Under the pieces are notes generated by a model. It was not told the DNA's origin. It made no database searches and saw only the letters and a program-made list of their open reading frames with translations. From the sequence record PP328843.1: a stretch of DNA of 64,000 nucleotides. One strand, 5' to 3'. A program made the position numbers and the translations under genes. Shown in pieces: positions 20,065 to 52,024 of the stretch (within the stretch, counting starts at the first letter, position 1; the number at the start of each line of letters is the position of its first letter). The DNA is from Escherichia phage 215Ecol030PP.

Positions 20065-20814
20065 ATGGCAAACATTATTCGTTGTAAATTACCAGATGGT
20101 GTTCATCGTTTTAAACCATTTACGGTAGAAGATTATCGAGATTTTTTGTTAGTTCGAAACGATATAGAACATCGGTCACCACAAGAACAAAAAGAAATAA
20201 TTGCTGATTTAATTGCCGATTATTTTGGAGACTATCCGAAGACTTGGCAACCATTTATATTTTTGCAGGTATTTGTAGGGTCAATAGGTAAAACAAAAGT
20301 ACCAGTCACATTCGTATGTCCAAAATGTAAAAAAGAAAAGACAGTTCCATTTGAAATATATCAAAAAGAATTAAAGGAACCTGTTTTTGATGTAGCTAAT
20401 GTTAAAATTAAATTAAAGTTTCCTTCTGAGTTTTATGAAAATAAAGCAAAGATGATTACTGAAAATATTCATTCTGTTCAAGTAGATGAAATTTGGTATG
20501 ATTGGAAGGAAATTAGCGAATCAAGTCAAATAGAACTTGTTGATGCAATCGAGATAGAAACATTAGAAAAAATTCTCGATGCAATGAATCCTATTAATTT
20601 AACTCTACATATGTCCTGCTGTGATAAGTATGTAAAAAAATACACTGATATAGTAGATGTGTTTAAGCTATTAGTTAACCCAGATGAAATATTTACTTTT
20701 TATCAAATTAATCACACACTCGTAAAAAGTAATTATAGCTTAAATTCAATAATGAAAATGATTCCTGCCGAGCGCGGATTCGTATTAAAACTGATTGAGA
20801 AGGATAAACAATAA
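20065..20814 (+). CDS. 51: baseplate hub assembly catalyst gp51
   Basis: ATG at 20065 after SD AAAGGAGC and late promoter; 249 aa ([12 protein letters not shown]...). Confidence 0.85.
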
Positions 20815-21989
20815 TGAGTATGTTGCAACGCCCTGGATATCCAAATCTCAGCGTTAAATTATTTGATAGCTACGACGCTTGGAGTAATAATAGATTTGTT
20901 GAATTAGCTGCTACTATTACCACATTAACTATGCGGGATTCTCTTTATGGCCGAAATGAAGGAATGCTGCAGTTTTATGATTCTAAAAATATTCATACAA
21001 AAATGGATGGAAATGAAATAATTCAGATTTCTGTAGCTAATGCAAACGATATTAATAATGTTAAAACACGAATTTATGGATGTAAGCATTTTTCCGTGTC
21101 AGTAGATTCAAAGGGTGATAACATCATTGCTATTGAATTGGGAACTATTCATTCTATAGAAAATCTTAAATTTGGCAGACCGTTTTTCCCTGATGCAGGT
21201 GAATCTATAAAGGAAATGCTTGGTGTCATTTATCAAGACCGCACGCTATTAACTCCAGCGATAAATGCTATAAATGCTTATGTTCCTGATATTCCATGGA
21301 CTAGCACATTTGAAAACTATTTGTCGTATGTTAGAGAAGTTGCTCTAGCTGTAGGAAGTGACAAATTTGTATTTGTATGGCAAGACATCATGGGAGTTAA
21401 CATGATGGATTATGATATGATGATAAATCAAGAACCATATCCAATGATTGTCGGTGAGCCATCTTTAATAGGTCAATTCATCCAAGAACTAAAATACCCA
21501 TTAGCGTATGATTTCGTTTGGTTGACTAAATCGAATCCTCACAAACGTGACCCAATGAAAAACGCTACTATCTATGCTCATTCATTTTTAGATTCTTCAT
21601 TGCCAATGATTACTACAGGAAAAGGCGAAAACTCTATTGTAGTGTCAAGGTCAGGTGCTTATTCTGAAATGACTTATAGGAATGGATATGAAGAAGCTAT
21701 TCGTCTTCAAACTATGGCGCAATATGATGGCTATGCTAAATGTTCTACTGTCGGTAATTTTAACTTGACCCCTGGCGTTAAAATTATTTTTAATGATAGT
21801 AAAAACCAATTTAAAACAGAATTTTACGTTGATGAAGTTATTCATGAATTATCAAATAATAATTCAGTAACTCATCTATATATGTTCACTAATGCAACGA
21901 AACTGGAAACAATAGACCCAGTTAAGGTTAAAAATGAATTTAAATCTGATACTACCACTGAAGAAAGCAGTTCTTCCAATAAGCAATAA
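20814..21989 (+). CDS. 27: baseplate hub protein gp27
   Basis: 391 aa, ATGA overlap with gene 51. Confidence 0.93.
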
Positions 21990-46794: not shown

Positions 46795-47056
46795 CATTAT
46801 GTTCAGATAAGGTCGTTAATCTTATCCCGGAATTATATCCAGCTGCATGTCACCATGCAGAGCAGACTATATCTCCAACTTGTTAAAGCAAGTTGTCTAT
46901 CGTTTCGAGTCACTTGACCCTACTCCCTAAAGGGATAGTCGTTAGGCATTTAGGTAGAACCAAAGTCCTACAATTTAGCACGGGATTGTCTACTAGAGAG
47001 GTTCCCCGTTTAGATAGATTACAAGTATAAGTCACCTTATACTCAGGCCTCAATTA
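46795..47056 (-). other. group I self-splicing intron in td, 262 nt, no endonuclease ORF
   Basis: Starts UAAUUGAGGCCUGAGUAUAAGG... right after exon-1 GGU and ends ...CUGAACAUAAUG, as recalled for the T4 td intron; only a 16-nt loop where T4 carries I-TevI. Confidence 0.8.
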
Positions 47057-47746
47057 ACCCAAGAAAACATCTACTGAGCGTTGATACCACTGCAAATCCA
47101 AATAGCCATTACGCACATTAAACTGATAGAACATATGACAAGGCGGTAATGCCATATATTTAAGTTCAGCTGGATTCCATGCAGAAACAATTTGACGCCT
47201 ATCATTTGGCAATTTTTTAATACGATCAATAACTTCTACAATTTGGTCTACACCGCCAAAATCACGCCATTGTTTTCCATAAATTGGACCAAGTTCACCG
47301 CTATGGTATCCTAAATCTTTTGCTTGATTTTCGTAATTTTCATCCCAGACTGTTTTGCCTTGAATTAATGAATCATGCTGAATTTGGTCTACACCGCCAA
47401 AATCACGCCATTGTTTTCCATAAATTGGACCAAGTTCACCGCTATGGTATCCTAAATCTTTTGCTTGATTTTCGTAATTTTCATCCCAGACTGTTTTGCC
47501 TTGAATTAATGAATCATGCTGAATTAATCGTAAATCATTTACGTTAGTACTTCCTGATAAGAACCAAAGTAGCTCAGCAATGCAAGCTTTCCAAGCGAGC
47601 TTCTTAGTTGTTACCGCAGGAAAACCTTTAGTTAAATCCCAGCGTAATTTAGTACCGAACAAAGCAATTGTTCCTGTGCCTGTTCGGTCATCGGTTTCAT
47701 AGCCATTTTCAAAAATGTCTTTAATTAAATCTTGGTATTGTTTCAT
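47057..47746 (-). CDS. td: thymidylate synthase, exon 1, carrying an in-frame 47-codon tandem duplication
   Basis: 230 codons; IQHDSLIQGKTVWDENYENQAKDLGYHSGELGPIYGKQWRDFGGVDQ occurs twice in tandem. Confidence 0.88.
47241..47522 (-). repeat. exact 141-bp tandem duplication (2 copies) inside td exon 1
   Basis: Copy 1 at 47241-47381 and copy 2 at 47382-47522 read identical by eye; short AATT-type microhomology at the junction. Confidence 0.85.
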
Positions 47747-47790: not shown

Positions 47791-48138
47791 TCAATACGGT
47801 TTAGCATCAAATTTTCTTTCGATTTCAGGAGTGAAATATAATTCTTTACCGCGTTTGGAAAAGCGACCAATAATATGATAATTATTCTCATCAAACGTAA
47901 TATTACCAATATCCATAGCTTTCAACCAAATATCGATATTTCTATCCAGCTTTATGTCAAAATTCCAATACGGAGAACTATTACCGAAAATACTGCAAGC
48001 AGATTCAGTGAAACAACTGCTATAAATCTTGTCTTTAGGAACTACTAATTGATAGACACCTTTAATAAACTGAGGACCCTGCCACTTTGGCTGTTTCGCG
48101 TCTTCTTCTAATAGAATAGGGTAATAATTAAAGTTCAT
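47791..48138 (-). CDS. hypothetical protein inserted between frd and td
   Basis: ORF track begins at GTG 48150; ATG at 48138 gives 115 aa (MNFNYYPILLEEDAKQPK...). Confidence 0.55.
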   Translation of the reverse strand: MNFNYYPILLEEDAKQPKWQGPQFIKGVYQLVVPKDKIYSSCFTESACSIFGNSSPYWNFDIKLDRNIDIWLKAMDIGNITFDENNYHIIGRFSKRGKELYFTPEIERKFDAKPY

Positions 48139-48158
48139 ATTTTCCGCCACGCGTTATT

Positions 48159-48988
<830 letters not shown>

Positions 48989-48998
48989 ATTATTTTCC

Positions 48999-49241
48999 TT
49001 AAACAGACTTTTTCACAATTTTCCAATCAGCTTTAAACTGATCGACGTCAGAATGGTAAATCCAGAATCCTGCGCTTTCTCCGTCTTCATAAAGAGGACA
49101 TCCATCACATTCATCTTCCCATCCCATGTCACGTAAAAGATGTTCAGCTTTTTCAACAAGTTCAGAATCTTTACCGATGATATTAAAATACCATTTACCT
49201 CTAACTTCTGAATCTTTGATGCTCTGGCGTTGTAATCTCAT
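48999..49241 (-). CDS. hypothetical protein (frd.x cluster)
   Basis: ORF track begins at TTG 49298; ATG at 49241 with SD AAGGAGAA gives 80 aa; early promoter occupies 49262-49296. Confidence 0.5.
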   Translation of the reverse strand: MRLQRQSIKDSEVRGKWYFNIIGKDSELVEKAEHLLRDMGWEDECDGCPLYEDGESAGFWIYHSDVDQFKADWKIVKKSV

Positions 49242-49261
49242 TTTATTCTCCTTAGTTGATA

Positions 49262-49296
49262 AGGCTATAGTATCATTACCATAGCCCGTTGTAAAC
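49262..49296 (-). promoter_or_regulatory. early promoter inside frd.x cluster
   Basis: GTTTAC ... TACTAT with inverted repeat GGCTAT/ATAGCC embracing the -10. Confidence 0.45.
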
Positions 49297-49298
49297 AA

Positions 49299-49592
49299 TT
49301 ATTTTTGAATTTTATCGAGCCACTTACCAAGCTTAATCATTTCTTTAGTAGCCTTTTCCATACTTCTGAACTTAACCAATAGAGGATAGGTATCGACACC
49401 CATAACTAAACTGGTTACAAGACTGTGTTCACCCACAAGCCATAACGAATACGTTTGAATATCGAGCCCGTAATTTCTGTCTTTATGGACCCGTACACCC
49501 ATCACTTCAAATTTCTCACTAGCTTTTTCTACCGCATCCAGGAAATCATCTTTAGTCATATTAGGCCTTAAAAGTTTTTCGCAAAAGTTCAA
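49299..49592 (-). CDS. hypothetical protein (frd.x cluster)
   Basis: 97 aa ORF. Confidence 0.55.
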   Translation of the reverse strand: MNFCEKLLRPNMTKDDFLDAVEKASEKFEVMGVRVHKDRNYGLDIQTYSLWLVGEHSLVTSLVMGVDTYPLLVKFRSMEKATKEMIKLGKWLDKIQK

Positions 49593-49947
49593 TGATTTCG
49601 TCTACATTGTTTTCGTCAACAATGCAGTGAATTTTTGTTACGCCAGAAACCTTGTCTTTGACTTCATCCTCTTCAGAAGTTGGTTCTTTATATTCGCGGA
49701 AACAATAAAACTCTTCTTCACTAAGTTCAAAATAATCATCACCCATACCATCATCATTATAGATTTCACCGTTAGCACAAATGATTTCGGTTACATAATC
49801 AAAGCCATCTAAACTTGATATTGATTTAACTTCAAACCAACCACCATTTTCTTGAATGATGCCGACCATATTAGCATTTGATGAACTAATATCAATGAAA
49901 GATTTAATACGGTGTGGATTTAACTCGTATTTTTTGCCGATTTCCAT
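49561..49947 (-). CDS. hypothetical protein in frd-32 variable region
   Basis: 128 aa from the SD-preceded ATG at 49947; acidic C-terminal half. Confidence 0.5.
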   Translation of the reverse strand: MEIGKKYELNPHRIKSFIDISSSNANMVGIIQENGGWFEVKSISSLDGFDYVTEIICANGEIYNDDGMGDDYFELSEEEFYCFREYKEPTSEEDEVKDKVSGVTKIHCIVDENNVDEIIELLRKTFKA

Positions 49948-49992
49948 TTTGATTTTCCTCATTTTAATAGGGGCTTAATAGCCCCTTGATAA

Positions 49993-50220
49993 TTATTGTT
50001 CAATCAGTCCCATGTAAAATTCTGCGTCTTCAGAATCCATGCCATCACAATATTCATTAGCCATAAAGCGGGTGAGGTCTTCAAGAGGACCTTCAATAAC
50101 GATTTGAATACTCCAAAACTTAGAATCTTGTACGCTTGTGATACTAAGTTCAGGATAACGATTACGAATAATCTCTTCAATATATTCAAAATCAACGATG
50201 TCAATATCAACTTTAGCCAT
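49993..50220 (-). CDS. hypothetical protein in frd-32 variable region
   Basis: ATG at 50220 with SD AAGAGGAAAA gives 75 aa ([17 protein letters not shown]...). Confidence 0.5.
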
Positions 50221-50324
50221 ATTATTTTCCTCTTTAATCATCAGCAGTATTGCCGATAGTTGTATAGTACCATGGAAGGACAAGGATGTAAACCGTTTTG
50301 TGAAAAAATTTTTGAAATAAAAAA

Positions 50325-50342
50325 GGGGACCTCTAGGGTCCC
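50325..50342 (-). terminator. intrinsic terminator after gene 32
   Basis: GGGGACC-TCTA-GGGTCCC then U tract on minus strand. Confidence 0.6.
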
Positions 50343-50365
50343 CAATTAATTAGTAATATAATCTA

Positions 50366-51271
50366 TTAAAGGTCATTCAAAAGGTCATCCAGGTCCGTGT
50401 CATCAGCACTAGATGAACTGCCAGAGCTTGAGCTCATAAAATCATCTTCAGTTTTTGTTTTGAAGTCATCAACATTGAATGCATCCAAATCATCAGCAAC
50501 TTTATCAGCTTTCTTAGCGGCAGTTGCAGCGGCACCACCCATAGCAGCAGTTCCCATAACTTGACTGAACTTAGTGCTCAGTTCTTCAAACGATTTGAAT
50601 TTATCTTTAGAAGTCATTTCAGAAAGGTCAACCATTTGTTCGAACAGTTCTTTCTGGAAAGATTCATCGTCAATGTTTGGAATCGCAGATTGATTCAGGA
50701 ATTTAGATTCGTCGTAGTTACTAAATCCAGAAACTTGTTTAACTTTCAGTACAAAGTTAGCACCTTCCCACGGACAAGTTACATCAACCGGAGTTTCACC
50801 CATTTCAACATCAACCGCAATCATTGCATTGATTTTATCCCAGATTTTCTTACCGAAGCGGTATTTAAATACTTTACCTTCGTTTTCTGGAGCAGCTGGA
50901 TCTTTTACTACAAGAATGTTAGCCCAGTAAGAAGTTTTACGTTTAACAAGACTGTACTCTTTATTGTCAGTGTTGTACAGATCATTTTTACTGATGTACT
51001 GACATACTGGGCAAGAATCGTAATCACCGTGGGTAGATGAACATGTTTCAATATACCATTTACCATTTTTCTTGAAACCGTGATTTACAAGAATTGCGAA
51101 TGGTGCTTGTTCATCATTTTTAGACGGAAGAAAACGAATTACTGCTTGACCGTTACCCGCATTGTCGAGTTTCAGTTTCCACTCGCCTTTATCTTCAGAA
51201 GAAAAACCTTTATTGCCATTCAGTTTAGCCATTTGTGCAGCGAGTTCAGCAGTAGATTTACGTTTAAACAT
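50366..51271 (-). CDS. 32: single-stranded DNA-binding protein gp32
   Basis: 301 aa; acidic C-terminal tail; zinc-binding H/C cluster; leader operator upstream. Confidence 0.97.
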
Positions 51272-51345
51272 TTTTATTTCCTTTTTAATTTAATTAACAG
51301 TTGGTGCTATGACGATGTATGACCTCATAGCTGGTCAGTGAGATA
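51272..51345 (-). promoter_or_regulatory. gene 32 mRNA leader: autoregulatory operator with pseudoknot
   Basis: Minus strand ...GCUAUGAGGUCAUACAUCGUCAUAGCACCAACUGUUAAUUAAAUUAAAAAGGAAAUAAAAAUG matches the T4 gene 32 translational operator as recalled. Confidence 0.7.
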
Positions 51346-51354
51346 ATTATAATC

Positions 51355-51362
51355 TATTTATA
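51355..51362 (-). promoter_or_regulatory. late promoter TATAAATA for gene 32
   Basis: Plus TATTTATA = minus TATAAATA. Confidence 0.5.
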
Positions 51363-51370
51363 ATAAGCAA

Positions 51371-52024
51371 TTAATACTTACAAGATTTCACAGTTTCAAT
51401 GAAAACATTTTTAGCTTTCTGTGAATCAATATTTAAAATTTTTCTATAAGCCTTTAACTTTATAGAATAATTATTCCAGACTAAATTATCAGTCTGTTCA
51501 TCATGTTTATCAATTATATTTAAAAATGAATCAAGCAAGATAAACGTCTCAAACGAAATTATGTTCGATTGCAGAAGTTTAAAAATATAACTCGACTGAA
51601 CTTTTGGATTATACTCAAAGATTTCTTTAAAAGCAGAAACTTCAACTTTTTTACTAAAATAATAGATATTCCTAATATCTTCTTCAAACTTAAATTTAAT
51701 TTGCTTTAAGCGTCCGATATATTCACGATAAAACACAAGTGCATCAGCGTCAGAGATGTCACCAATCCAAGCATCTTGGTTAGCAACCAAATTACTTATA
51801 AAGATTAAAGCAAGTTCCTTTAATTTATATTTTTCTGATAACTTCTGGAAAAAATACTTATCCCTTCGCTTTTGATAAGCGGCATCAGACACCCGCATGC
51901 ACCAATTATACTTAATTACATCATACTTTCCATTCATATGTTGTTTTATCATTAAGTATAATTTATAAACTGATTTACCATCAATGTATCTTTCACCACC
52001 AGCAGGCATGCGGAGTTTAATCAT
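51371..52024 (-). CDS. 59: helicase loader gp59
   Basis: 217 aa, T4 gp59 size. Confidence 0.9.
   Translation of the reverse strand: MIKLRMPAGGERYIDGKSVYKLYLMIKQHMNGKYDVIKYNWCMRVSDAAYQKRRDKYFFQKLSEKYKLKELALIFISNLVANQDAWIGDISDADALVFYREYIGRLKQIKFKFEEDIRNIYYFSKKVEVSAFKEIFEYNPKVQSSYIFKLLQSNIISFETFILLDSFLNIIDKHDEQTDNLVWNNYSIKLKAYRKILNIDSQKAKNVFIETVKSCKY

Follow-up and report, generated by a model that had tools for sequence, protein, structure and literature searches.

The frd.3 and frd.2 genes of a T4-like Escherichia phage: a conserved early gene pair and the mosaic structure of frd.2

Among the early genes of phage T4, frd.2 and frd.3 have been annotated and represented in Pfam for decades, and a fold analysis of Frd.2 is already published, which groups the protein with GoF and MotB.1 in a Tevenvirinae family with an 'LSm-like fold', describes a predicted barrel with five antiparallel strands and remarks on its similarity to Hfq (PMC12152347). 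The best lead for Frd.2 within this group is GoF: GoF mutants suppress the effects of rho mutants, and the D25Y form, described as gaining positive surface potential, stabilises the gene 41 leader RNA and lengthens the half-life of a reporter RNA. This mutant is the source of the only RNA-stability phenotype known in the GoF/MotB.1/Frd.2 group. At the level of gene organisation, the closest described elements are the promoter-early stem-loop (PeSL) cassettes of T4-type phages (PMC2839356, PMC4122927). Here we analyse a stretch of 64,000 nucleotides (nt) of Escherichia phage 215Ecol030PP (sequence record PP328843.1), hereafter the window, which is a segment of a Tequatrovirus (T4-like) genome, and in particular its positions 49561-50220, which span exactly from the stop of an open reading frame (ORF) of 128 amino acids (aa) to the start of an ORF of 75 aa. 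The closest DNA match is Escherichia phage 235Ecol030PP (97.9 % across 1.7 kb).

Both ORFs are known early genes of T4, namely frd.2 and frd.3. For the 128-aa protein the match to Pfam family PF03197 (FRD2) has E = 7e-39 and 132.9 bits (gathering cut-off 29), and 126 of its 127 aligned residues are identical to T4 Frd.2 (NP_049852; phrog_622). The 75-aa protein matches PF05798 (Phage_FRD3) with E = 8.1e-40 and 135.6 bits (cut-off 28.1) over profile positions 1-75 of 75, and is identical to T4 Frd.3 (NP_049853; phrog_1764) at all 75 residues. Both genes sit between gene 32 and frd, as they do in T4 (NC_000866, our reference for identity and synteny). Compared with its T4 counterpart, frd.2 has the same length, position, upstream hairpin and Shine-Dalgarno sequence, and differs in its last residue (A in the window, K in T4), because the 3' junction in the window is of the RB51 type, and in what follows the gene, which is a 138-bp spacer in T4 and another ORF (ORF86) in the window. 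The T4 and window versions of frd.3 share promoter hexamers and upstream terminator along with the protein, and differ by one synonymous change and in the promoter spacer. An earlier reading of the letters alone, hereafter the original prediction, had described two ORFs of 128 and 75 aa with these limits, which are indeed both present on the minus strand, and had put them between the frd.x ORFs and gene 32 as candidates of unknown function. The placement was a mislabel, given that the ORFs are frd.2 and frd.3 themselves, and they are not new, each having its own Pfam family.

The original prediction was right that each ATG is preceded by a Shine-Dalgarno sequence, which reads GAGGAAAATCAAA-ATG at the 128-aa ORF and AAAGAGGAAAATAAT-ATG at the 75-aa ORF; both sequences are conserved in T4, RB51 and RB3. 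An identical 14-nt block of ribosome-binding site and start, AGGAAAATAATATG on the coding strand, is common to frd.3 (50218-50231) and to the downstream ORF81 (48986-48999). Longer readings of both genes were considered and set aside: the upstream ATG that would give a 133-aa Frd.2 is out of frame in RB51 through a 1-nt deletion, the upstream in-frame ATG that would give an 82-aa Frd.3 is ATA in T4, and a 96-aa Frd.3 starting at TTG would begin farther upstream, without the conserved Shine-Dalgarno sequence found ahead of the ATG of the 75-aa ORF. Two plus-strand ORFs (49627-49812 and 49996-50259) were treated as antisense shadows of frd.2 and frd.3, with no separate homologue search. By tblastn, Frd.2 is found in 886 phage records and Frd.3 in 733. 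The ratio of nonsynonymous to synonymous substitution rates (dN/dS) is 0.35-0.44 for frd.3, and for frd.2 between allele classes it is 0.19-0.30 in the comparisons that involve the window or T4 and 0.48 between RB51 and RB3. The overall range of 0.19-0.48 indicates purifying selection on both genes, and at this resolution, that of dN/dS between allele classes, no positive selection was detected. frd.2 and frd.3 are thus real genes, expressed and conserved far beyond what chance ORFs would be.

Expression is supported by both the architecture of the locus and published data from T4. Upstream of frd.3, gene 32 ends in an intrinsic terminator that folds at -14.3 kcal/mol, has the U-tract U6AU3 and is identical in T4, RB51 and RB3 (Table 1). 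About 30 nt beyond it lies a sigma-70-type promoter that fits the published consensus of T4-type early promoters, TTTACW-N17-TAYWAT (PMC4122927). Its hexamers are invariant in T4, RB51 and RB3, and T4 has diverged in the spacer only, as one would expect of a promoter in use. NAD (nicotinamide adenine dinucleotide) caps are added at transcription initiation. The frd.3 transcript ranks with the most abundant NAD-capped RNAs of T4 (bioRxiv 10.1101/2024.04.04.588121), which argues that a primary transcript starts at this very promoter. Moreover, frd.2 RNA was seen by RNA-seq in T4-infected cells 5 min post-infection, at a level unchanged by knock-down of motB, and was then used as reference gene in reverse-transcription quantitative PCR (PMC6070864). 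An absence of expression, which the original prediction had named as grounds for discarding its proposal, is therefore contradicted by the T4 data for both genes.

Between frd.3 and frd.2 we found a second hairpin (-12.9 kcal/mol, z = -3.4), which ends 9 nt ahead of the frd.2 Shine-Dalgarno sequence. By the usual criteria it is not an intrinsic terminator, as the stem is followed by UAUUAAAAUGAGG and the terminator scan made no call. T4, RB51 and RB3 all retain the stem, with changes in its length and in the loop, and Serratia phage X20 has an unrelated hairpin in the same position. No stable hairpin follows frd.2, where the stretch around the TAATATG junction folds at just -0.5 kcal/mol. The expectation that both ORFs are flanked by stable hairpins consequently holds on both sides of frd.3 and only on the upstream side of frd.2. 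No Rfam family was matched in 48500-51500 at E <= 1. Together, frd.3 and frd.2 would form one small transcription unit that runs on into the downstream ORF, and the hairpin between them may serve as a protector of RNA 3' ends or as an attenuator, and not as a full terminator.

This arrangement resembles that of PeSL cassettes, in that a stem-loop followed by TTTACA-N17-TACTAT stands ahead of frd.3 (50343-50264) and a second copy of the hexamers overlaps a hairpin ahead of frd.1 (49295-49260), both of which combine a stem-loop with a promoter as PeSL motifs do, and in that ORFs are gained and lost at such junctions. On sequence grounds these repeated regulatory cassettes can therefore be said to resemble PeSL motifs. 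However, the stem-loop ahead of frd.3 is the working terminator of gene 32, and the breakpoints of the frd.2 cassette described below lie in the coding sequence of the tail and in the hairpin/Shine-Dalgarno region between the two genes, and not at a promoter. The second early promoter (hexamers TTTACA-17-TACTAT) overlaps a hairpin of -14.7 kcal/mol upstream of frd.1, at 49260-49295.

The original prediction had regarded the two ORFs as belonging to the part of the frd-32 interval that varies among T-even phages. We found instead that they are its constant members in T4-like phages of Escherichia, Serratia and Klebsiella, and that the variable gene content lies downstream, between frd.2 and frd, where ORF86 and ORF81 sit. 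T4, RB51, RB3, Serratia phage X20 and Klebsiella phage PMBT63 all have frd.3, frd.2 and frd.1 in this order between gene 32 and frd. The Frd.3 homologue of PMBT63, which the Frd.3 profile matches with E = 2.8e-7, ends 3 nt short of frd.2, and that of X20 is one ORF away from frd.2. Right after gene 32, X20 codes for the Frd.3 homologue and a second small protein of 70 aa (784-996 and 1061-1285). The predicted structure of the 70-aa protein is weakly similar to Frd.3 (Foldseek E = 0.014; template modelling (TM) score 0.66), and it may represent an old Frd.3 paralogue. ORF86 and ORF81 are not present in T4, and RB51 and RB3 carry other combinations. ORF86 is present in RB51 and absent from T4 and RB3, and the copies of the window and RB51 differ at a proportion of synonymous sites (pS) of only 0.019. 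Its insertion junction lies in the last two codons of frd.2, which in the window reads TFKA-stop followed by the ATG of ORF86, whereas in T4 and RB3 TFKK-stop is followed by a GTTTACA promoter.

Within the two genes, the variation visible in the sequences is concentrated in an N-terminal allele of frd.2 and in a patch of 13 residues in Frd.3 (residues 29-41, with a mean identity of 0.47 versus about 0.8 elsewhere). Across the tblastn matches to phage records, the identities to Frd.2 group at 90 % or more, at 60-80 % and at less than 60 %, and the mean pairwise identity in the family is 0.55 in the N-terminal domain, 0.28 in the linker and 0.83 in the tail. A DNA alignment of the frd.2 region from the window, T4, RB51 and RB3 reveals two near-identical blocks, the first comprising the 3' end of frd.3, the hairpin and the frd.2 Shine-Dalgarno sequence, and the second roughly the last 85 nt of frd.2, separated by about 300 nt that are highly diverged. 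Between allele classes the segment coding for the N-terminal domain shows pS values of 0.65-0.87, with a corresponding nonsynonymous proportion (pN) of 0.26-0.47, against 0.06-0.25 (pS) in the tail and a baseline of 0.08-0.13 (pS) in gene 32. Even where the N-terminal domains of phages differ by over 50 %, the DNA of the tail is near-identical. By these comparisons the barrel segment of frd.2 is an ancient allelic cassette in a young backbone, and the tail-coding block serves as a recombination junction, the mosaic in the DNA showing that part of the invariance of the Frd.2 tail is recombinational and not selective. The frd.2 of the window itself combines a T4-type cassette with an RB51-type 3' junction, ending in ...TFKA and followed by ORF86.

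Concerning the proteins, the AlphaFold2 model of Frd.2 has a predicted local distance difference test score (pLDDT) of 85.7. In it, residues 1-88 form a small beta-barrel that holds two inserted helices, residues 92-100 are a disordered, acidic linker, and the conserved tail contains a C-terminal helix (115-126). This corresponds to the architecture described for the GoF/MotB.1 family, with its N-terminal bent antiparallel beta-barrel, flexible linker and C-terminal part. The N-terminal domain, published under the label 'LSm-like', is predicted from the model to be an SH3/FeoA-like barrel. Its isoelectric point (pI) is 4.2, and its structural neighbours are mainly protein-binding barrels of the SH3/Tudor/KOW-like type. 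The closest known systems for this barrel are the SH3-like domains of FeoA and of the DtxR C-terminus, and the Tudor-like domains of CarD/CdnL, UvrD and PcrA. As for GoF and MotB.1, they share with Frd.2 the N-terminal small beta-barrel and the acidic linker, and all three are early, dispensable and acidic. The tail of GoF also resembles that of Frd.2, KIHCIVDENNVDEIIELLRKTFK, as judged by eye, and the PHROG profile 'goF mRNA metabolism modulator' gives a weak match to Frd.2 (E = 6.8e-4). However, profile comparisons show no significant sequence similarity of either protein to Frd.2.

Frd.3 is confidently modelled (pLDDT 94.4) and predicted to be a single ferredoxin-like alpha/beta domain with a beta-alpha-beta-beta-alpha-alpha order, and its structural matches are generic ferredoxin-like domains only. 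The family is marked by an N-terminal MAK-(V/I)-x-(I/L)-(D/E)-(I/V) signature and an EY-x-x-G-(M/A)-D-x-(E/D) turn between helices 2 and 3. BFVD models of homologues from Erwinia, Klebsiella and Serratia phages, which are 23-28 % identical to Frd.3, show the same fold, the TM-scores being 0.85-0.9. A search of the Frd.3 profile against 1.84 billion representative proteins returned 7 matches. The one large protein among them, P0071 (2044 aa, 11 weak stretches), was discarded as a relative, since it is rich in Cys and built of tandem repeats that inflate its score. This leaves a handful of small phage proteins, which indicates that the family is confined to T4-like phages. No fusion proteins were found that would account for the 391 positions of the PHROG profile, and we did not find literature on Frd.3 beyond listings. 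For either protein, Pfam, NCBIfam and Protein Data Bank (PDB) sequence searches revealed no enzymatic motif or family: NCBIfam gave no match, the PDB sequences no meaningful one, and the side-matches in Pfam (PII-homologue, RepB_C, RelB-like) are weak and all far under their cut-offs. No paralogues of frd.2 or frd.3 were found in the window. A Frd.3-profile match at 21651-21845 (E = 0.006) was rejected, as it runs antisense inside a 391-aa gene (20814-21989, plus strand) that appears to be the baseplate hub gene 27.

The best overall explanation of these data, to which we assign a probability of roughly 0.8, is that the locus is the T4 frd.3/frd.2 early unit, coding for acidic proteins without a detectable catalytic motif that are probable host-takeover binding proteins. 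For Frd.2, action in RNA metabolism or transcription is the favoured role, although it is less likely than not. Small size, acidity, early expression, dispensability and the lack of catalytic motifs fit binding proteins that would act stoichiometrically in early host takeover and be dispensable in laboratory hosts, and the 'accessory host-interaction genes' of the original prediction are a reasonable description of the pair. In T4, frd.2 amber mutants plate normally, with an efficiency of plating near 1 (PMC12152347), and in the CRISPRi-ART data frd.3 is called 'Not fit' and frd.2 marginally 'Fit' (score 0.83, p = 0.027, four guides), gene 32 scoring strongly. By analogy with GoF, whose D25Y form stabilises gene 41 mRNA and whose mutants suppress rho mutants, Frd.2 may modulate mRNA stability, transcription termination or RNA polymerase-associated machinery, which is a tentative proposal. 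Within it we favour contact of Frd.2 with a protein partner over direct binding of RNA, considering the acidic barrel, its mainly protein-binding neighbours and the behaviour of wild-type GoF and MotB.1. The variable barrel would then provide target specificity and the invariant tail contact with a constant partner, while Frd.3 may partner Frd.2 or bind a separate host protein.

Several points weigh against this reading. Direct comparison with hhalign gave E = 0.07 (single sequence) and 0.29 (profile) for Frd.2 against GoF and E = 0.018 for Frd.2 against MotB.1, all at probabilities below 3 % and from shallow alignments (effective number of sequences, Neff, 2.4). As these profile-profile tests are not significant, the kinship of Frd.2 with GoF and MotB.1 rests on the published claim and is not counted here as confirmed. 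The reporter assay of the same work showed no stabilisation of RNA by wild-type GoF or MotB.1, and we found no mention there of Frd.2 in that assay (PMC12152347). The 'Fit' call for frd.2 sits awkwardly with full dispensability, a complex of Frd.2 with Frd.3 is pure inference from gene linkage, and no demonstrated function for either protein was found in the literature.

Other explanations have to be considered against this background. Frd.2 might be a true LSm/Hfq-like RNA chaperone that binds phage or host RNA directly through its N-terminal barrel, a role proposed for the GoF/MotB.1/Frd.2 family and in line with the published five-strand barrel with its Hfq similarity, the recurrence of the same barrel in the AlphaFold2 model and the longer half-life of reporter RNA with GoF(D25Y). 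We consider this unlikely, since the surface is acidic (barrel pI as above; net charge of the whole protein -16), and the only active GoF form is the one that gains positive surface potential. A helix before the first strand is typical of Sm folds; the model of Frd.2 does not show an N-terminal helix in this position and so falls short of close structural similarity to Sm/Hfq proteins. It is likewise doubtful that either protein, or both, counter host defences or determine host range, with the Frd.2 barrel and the Frd.3 patch as arms-race interfaces towards a polymorphic host target. Such a role would agree with three deeply diverged N-terminal classes (pS 0.65-0.87 versus about 0.1) in a backbone that is about 90-95 % identical, with the local variable patch of Frd.3, and with the small, acidic, early and dispensable character that is typical of phage inhibitor proteins. 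Yet dN/dS bears no sign of positive selection, recombination alone can yield a mosaic, and the two genes persist from genus to genus, unlike anti-defence genes with their usually patchy occurrence. No screen reporting frd.2 or frd.3 was found in the literature, no anti-defence library having been searched, and a 2025 screen of accessory genes does not mention them (PMC12373910).

Gene position could also be taken to mean that the proteins assist the machinery of nucleotide synthesis and replication as accessory subunits or scaffolds, and position, through the gene 32-frd synteny found in all T4-like phages examined, is what this idea draws on. It is very improbable, as the genes are served by a separate early promoter past the gene 32 terminator, show no similarity to metabolic or replication proteins in sequence and structure searches, and have little or no phenotype upon knock-down or amber mutation where gene 32 has a strong one. 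Finally, the behaviour of the conserved DNA blocks beside the variable cassette as recombination junctions might suggest ORFs without protein function that persist as a spacer between regulatory and recombination motifs, but intact frames in hundreds of phages, dN/dS below 0.5, confident folded models obtained from shallow alignments and the retention of the Frd.3 fold in its distant homologues mean that this possibility is effectively refuted by the conservation data. Returning to the host-takeover reading, an elaborated form of it would see frd.3/frd.2 as a conserved two-protein module in which the Frd.2 barrel, exchangeable by recombination at the upstream hairpin/Shine-Dalgarno and tail blocks, targets as a KOW/Tudor mimic a polymorphic host factor (such as a defence sensor or a protein associated with Rho, RNA polymerase or an RNase), and in which the invariant tail, possibly together with Frd.3, makes the constant effector contact. 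In this full form the scheme is quite improbable.

Table 1. Features of the gene 59 to td region of the window, in window coordinates
Feature	Position	Strand	Remarks
gene 59	51371-52024	-	
gene 32	50366-51271	-	
gene 32 intrinsic terminator	50325-50343	-	GGGGACC-CTAGA-GGTCCCC then UUUUUUAUUU; 7-bp GC-rich stem, 5-nt loop; terminator scan
sigma-70-type early promoter of frd.3/frd.2	50264-50292	-	TTTACA, 17 nt, TG-n-TACTAT; A/T-rich tract upstream; promoter scan
frd.3, 75-aa ORF with stop	49993-50220	-	ATG at 50220; 8.8 kDa, pI 4.05, net charge -13
frd.3-frd.2 hairpin	49971-49986	-	GGGGCU-AUUA-AGCCCC, without U-tract; upstream of the frd.2 Shine-Dalgarno sequence
frd.2, 128-aa ORF	49561-49947	-	ATG at 49947; 14.7 kDa, pI 4.34, net charge -16
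frd.2 codons 1-88, predicted N-terminal barrel	49684-49947	-	hypervariable allelic cassette
frd.2 codons 89-101, acidic linker	49645-49683	-	predicted disordered; pLDDT < 50 at residues 92-100
frd.2 codons 102-128 and stop, tail	49561-49644	-	nearly invariant, GVTKIHCIVDENNVDEIIELLRKTFK; also conserved DNA block
ORF86 (phrog_4423, unknown function)	49299-49559	-	ATG one base past frd.2 stop (TAATATG)
frd.1 (DUF5417)	48999-49241	-	
ORF81 (phrog_3183)	48743-48988	-	pI 4.05
frd	48159-48743	-	
ORF119 (119 aa, phrog_1928, unknown function)	47791-48150	-	
td	from 47746 downward	-	

Every gene from 59 to td is on the minus strand, and the surroundings of the unit differ from T4 at several points. The gap between genes 32 and 59 (51272-51370, about 100 nt) lacks segG, as it does in 235Ecol030PP and RB51, whereas this homing endonuclease gene occupies the position in T4 and RB3. 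ORF119 is inserted between td and frd, two genes that overlap in T4. In td, exon 1 (minus-strand ORF 47054-47746) contains a perfect 141-bp tandem duplication at 47240-47525 (2.0 copies, 100 % identical), which keeps the frame, so that 47 codons of thymidylate synthase occur twice. Of the 471-nt query, only 330 nt are covered by the best relatives in the database, which indicates that the duplication is missing from them. Either it is an artefact of assembly, or it is real and recent and would then probably disrupt the enzyme. The group I intron of td is found at 46843-47066 on the minus strand (Rfam RF00028, 65.5 bits), and is only about 250 nt long, without a homing-endonuclease ORF, whereas the td intron of T4 carries I-TevI.

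As a discovery the locus carries little weight, the genes being long known. For Frd.3, a confidently predicted structure and a signature of the family are now at hand. Among T4 genes of unknown function, the CRISPRi-ART data call frd.2 alone 'Fit', so that any lead on its mechanism is useful, and the acidic barrel with its protein-binding structural neighbours argues for looking to protein partners before RNA. Finally, the sharp mosaic of frd.2, in which an ancient and saturated N-terminal cassette stands between two near-identical DNA blocks, provides a natural set of domain swaps.

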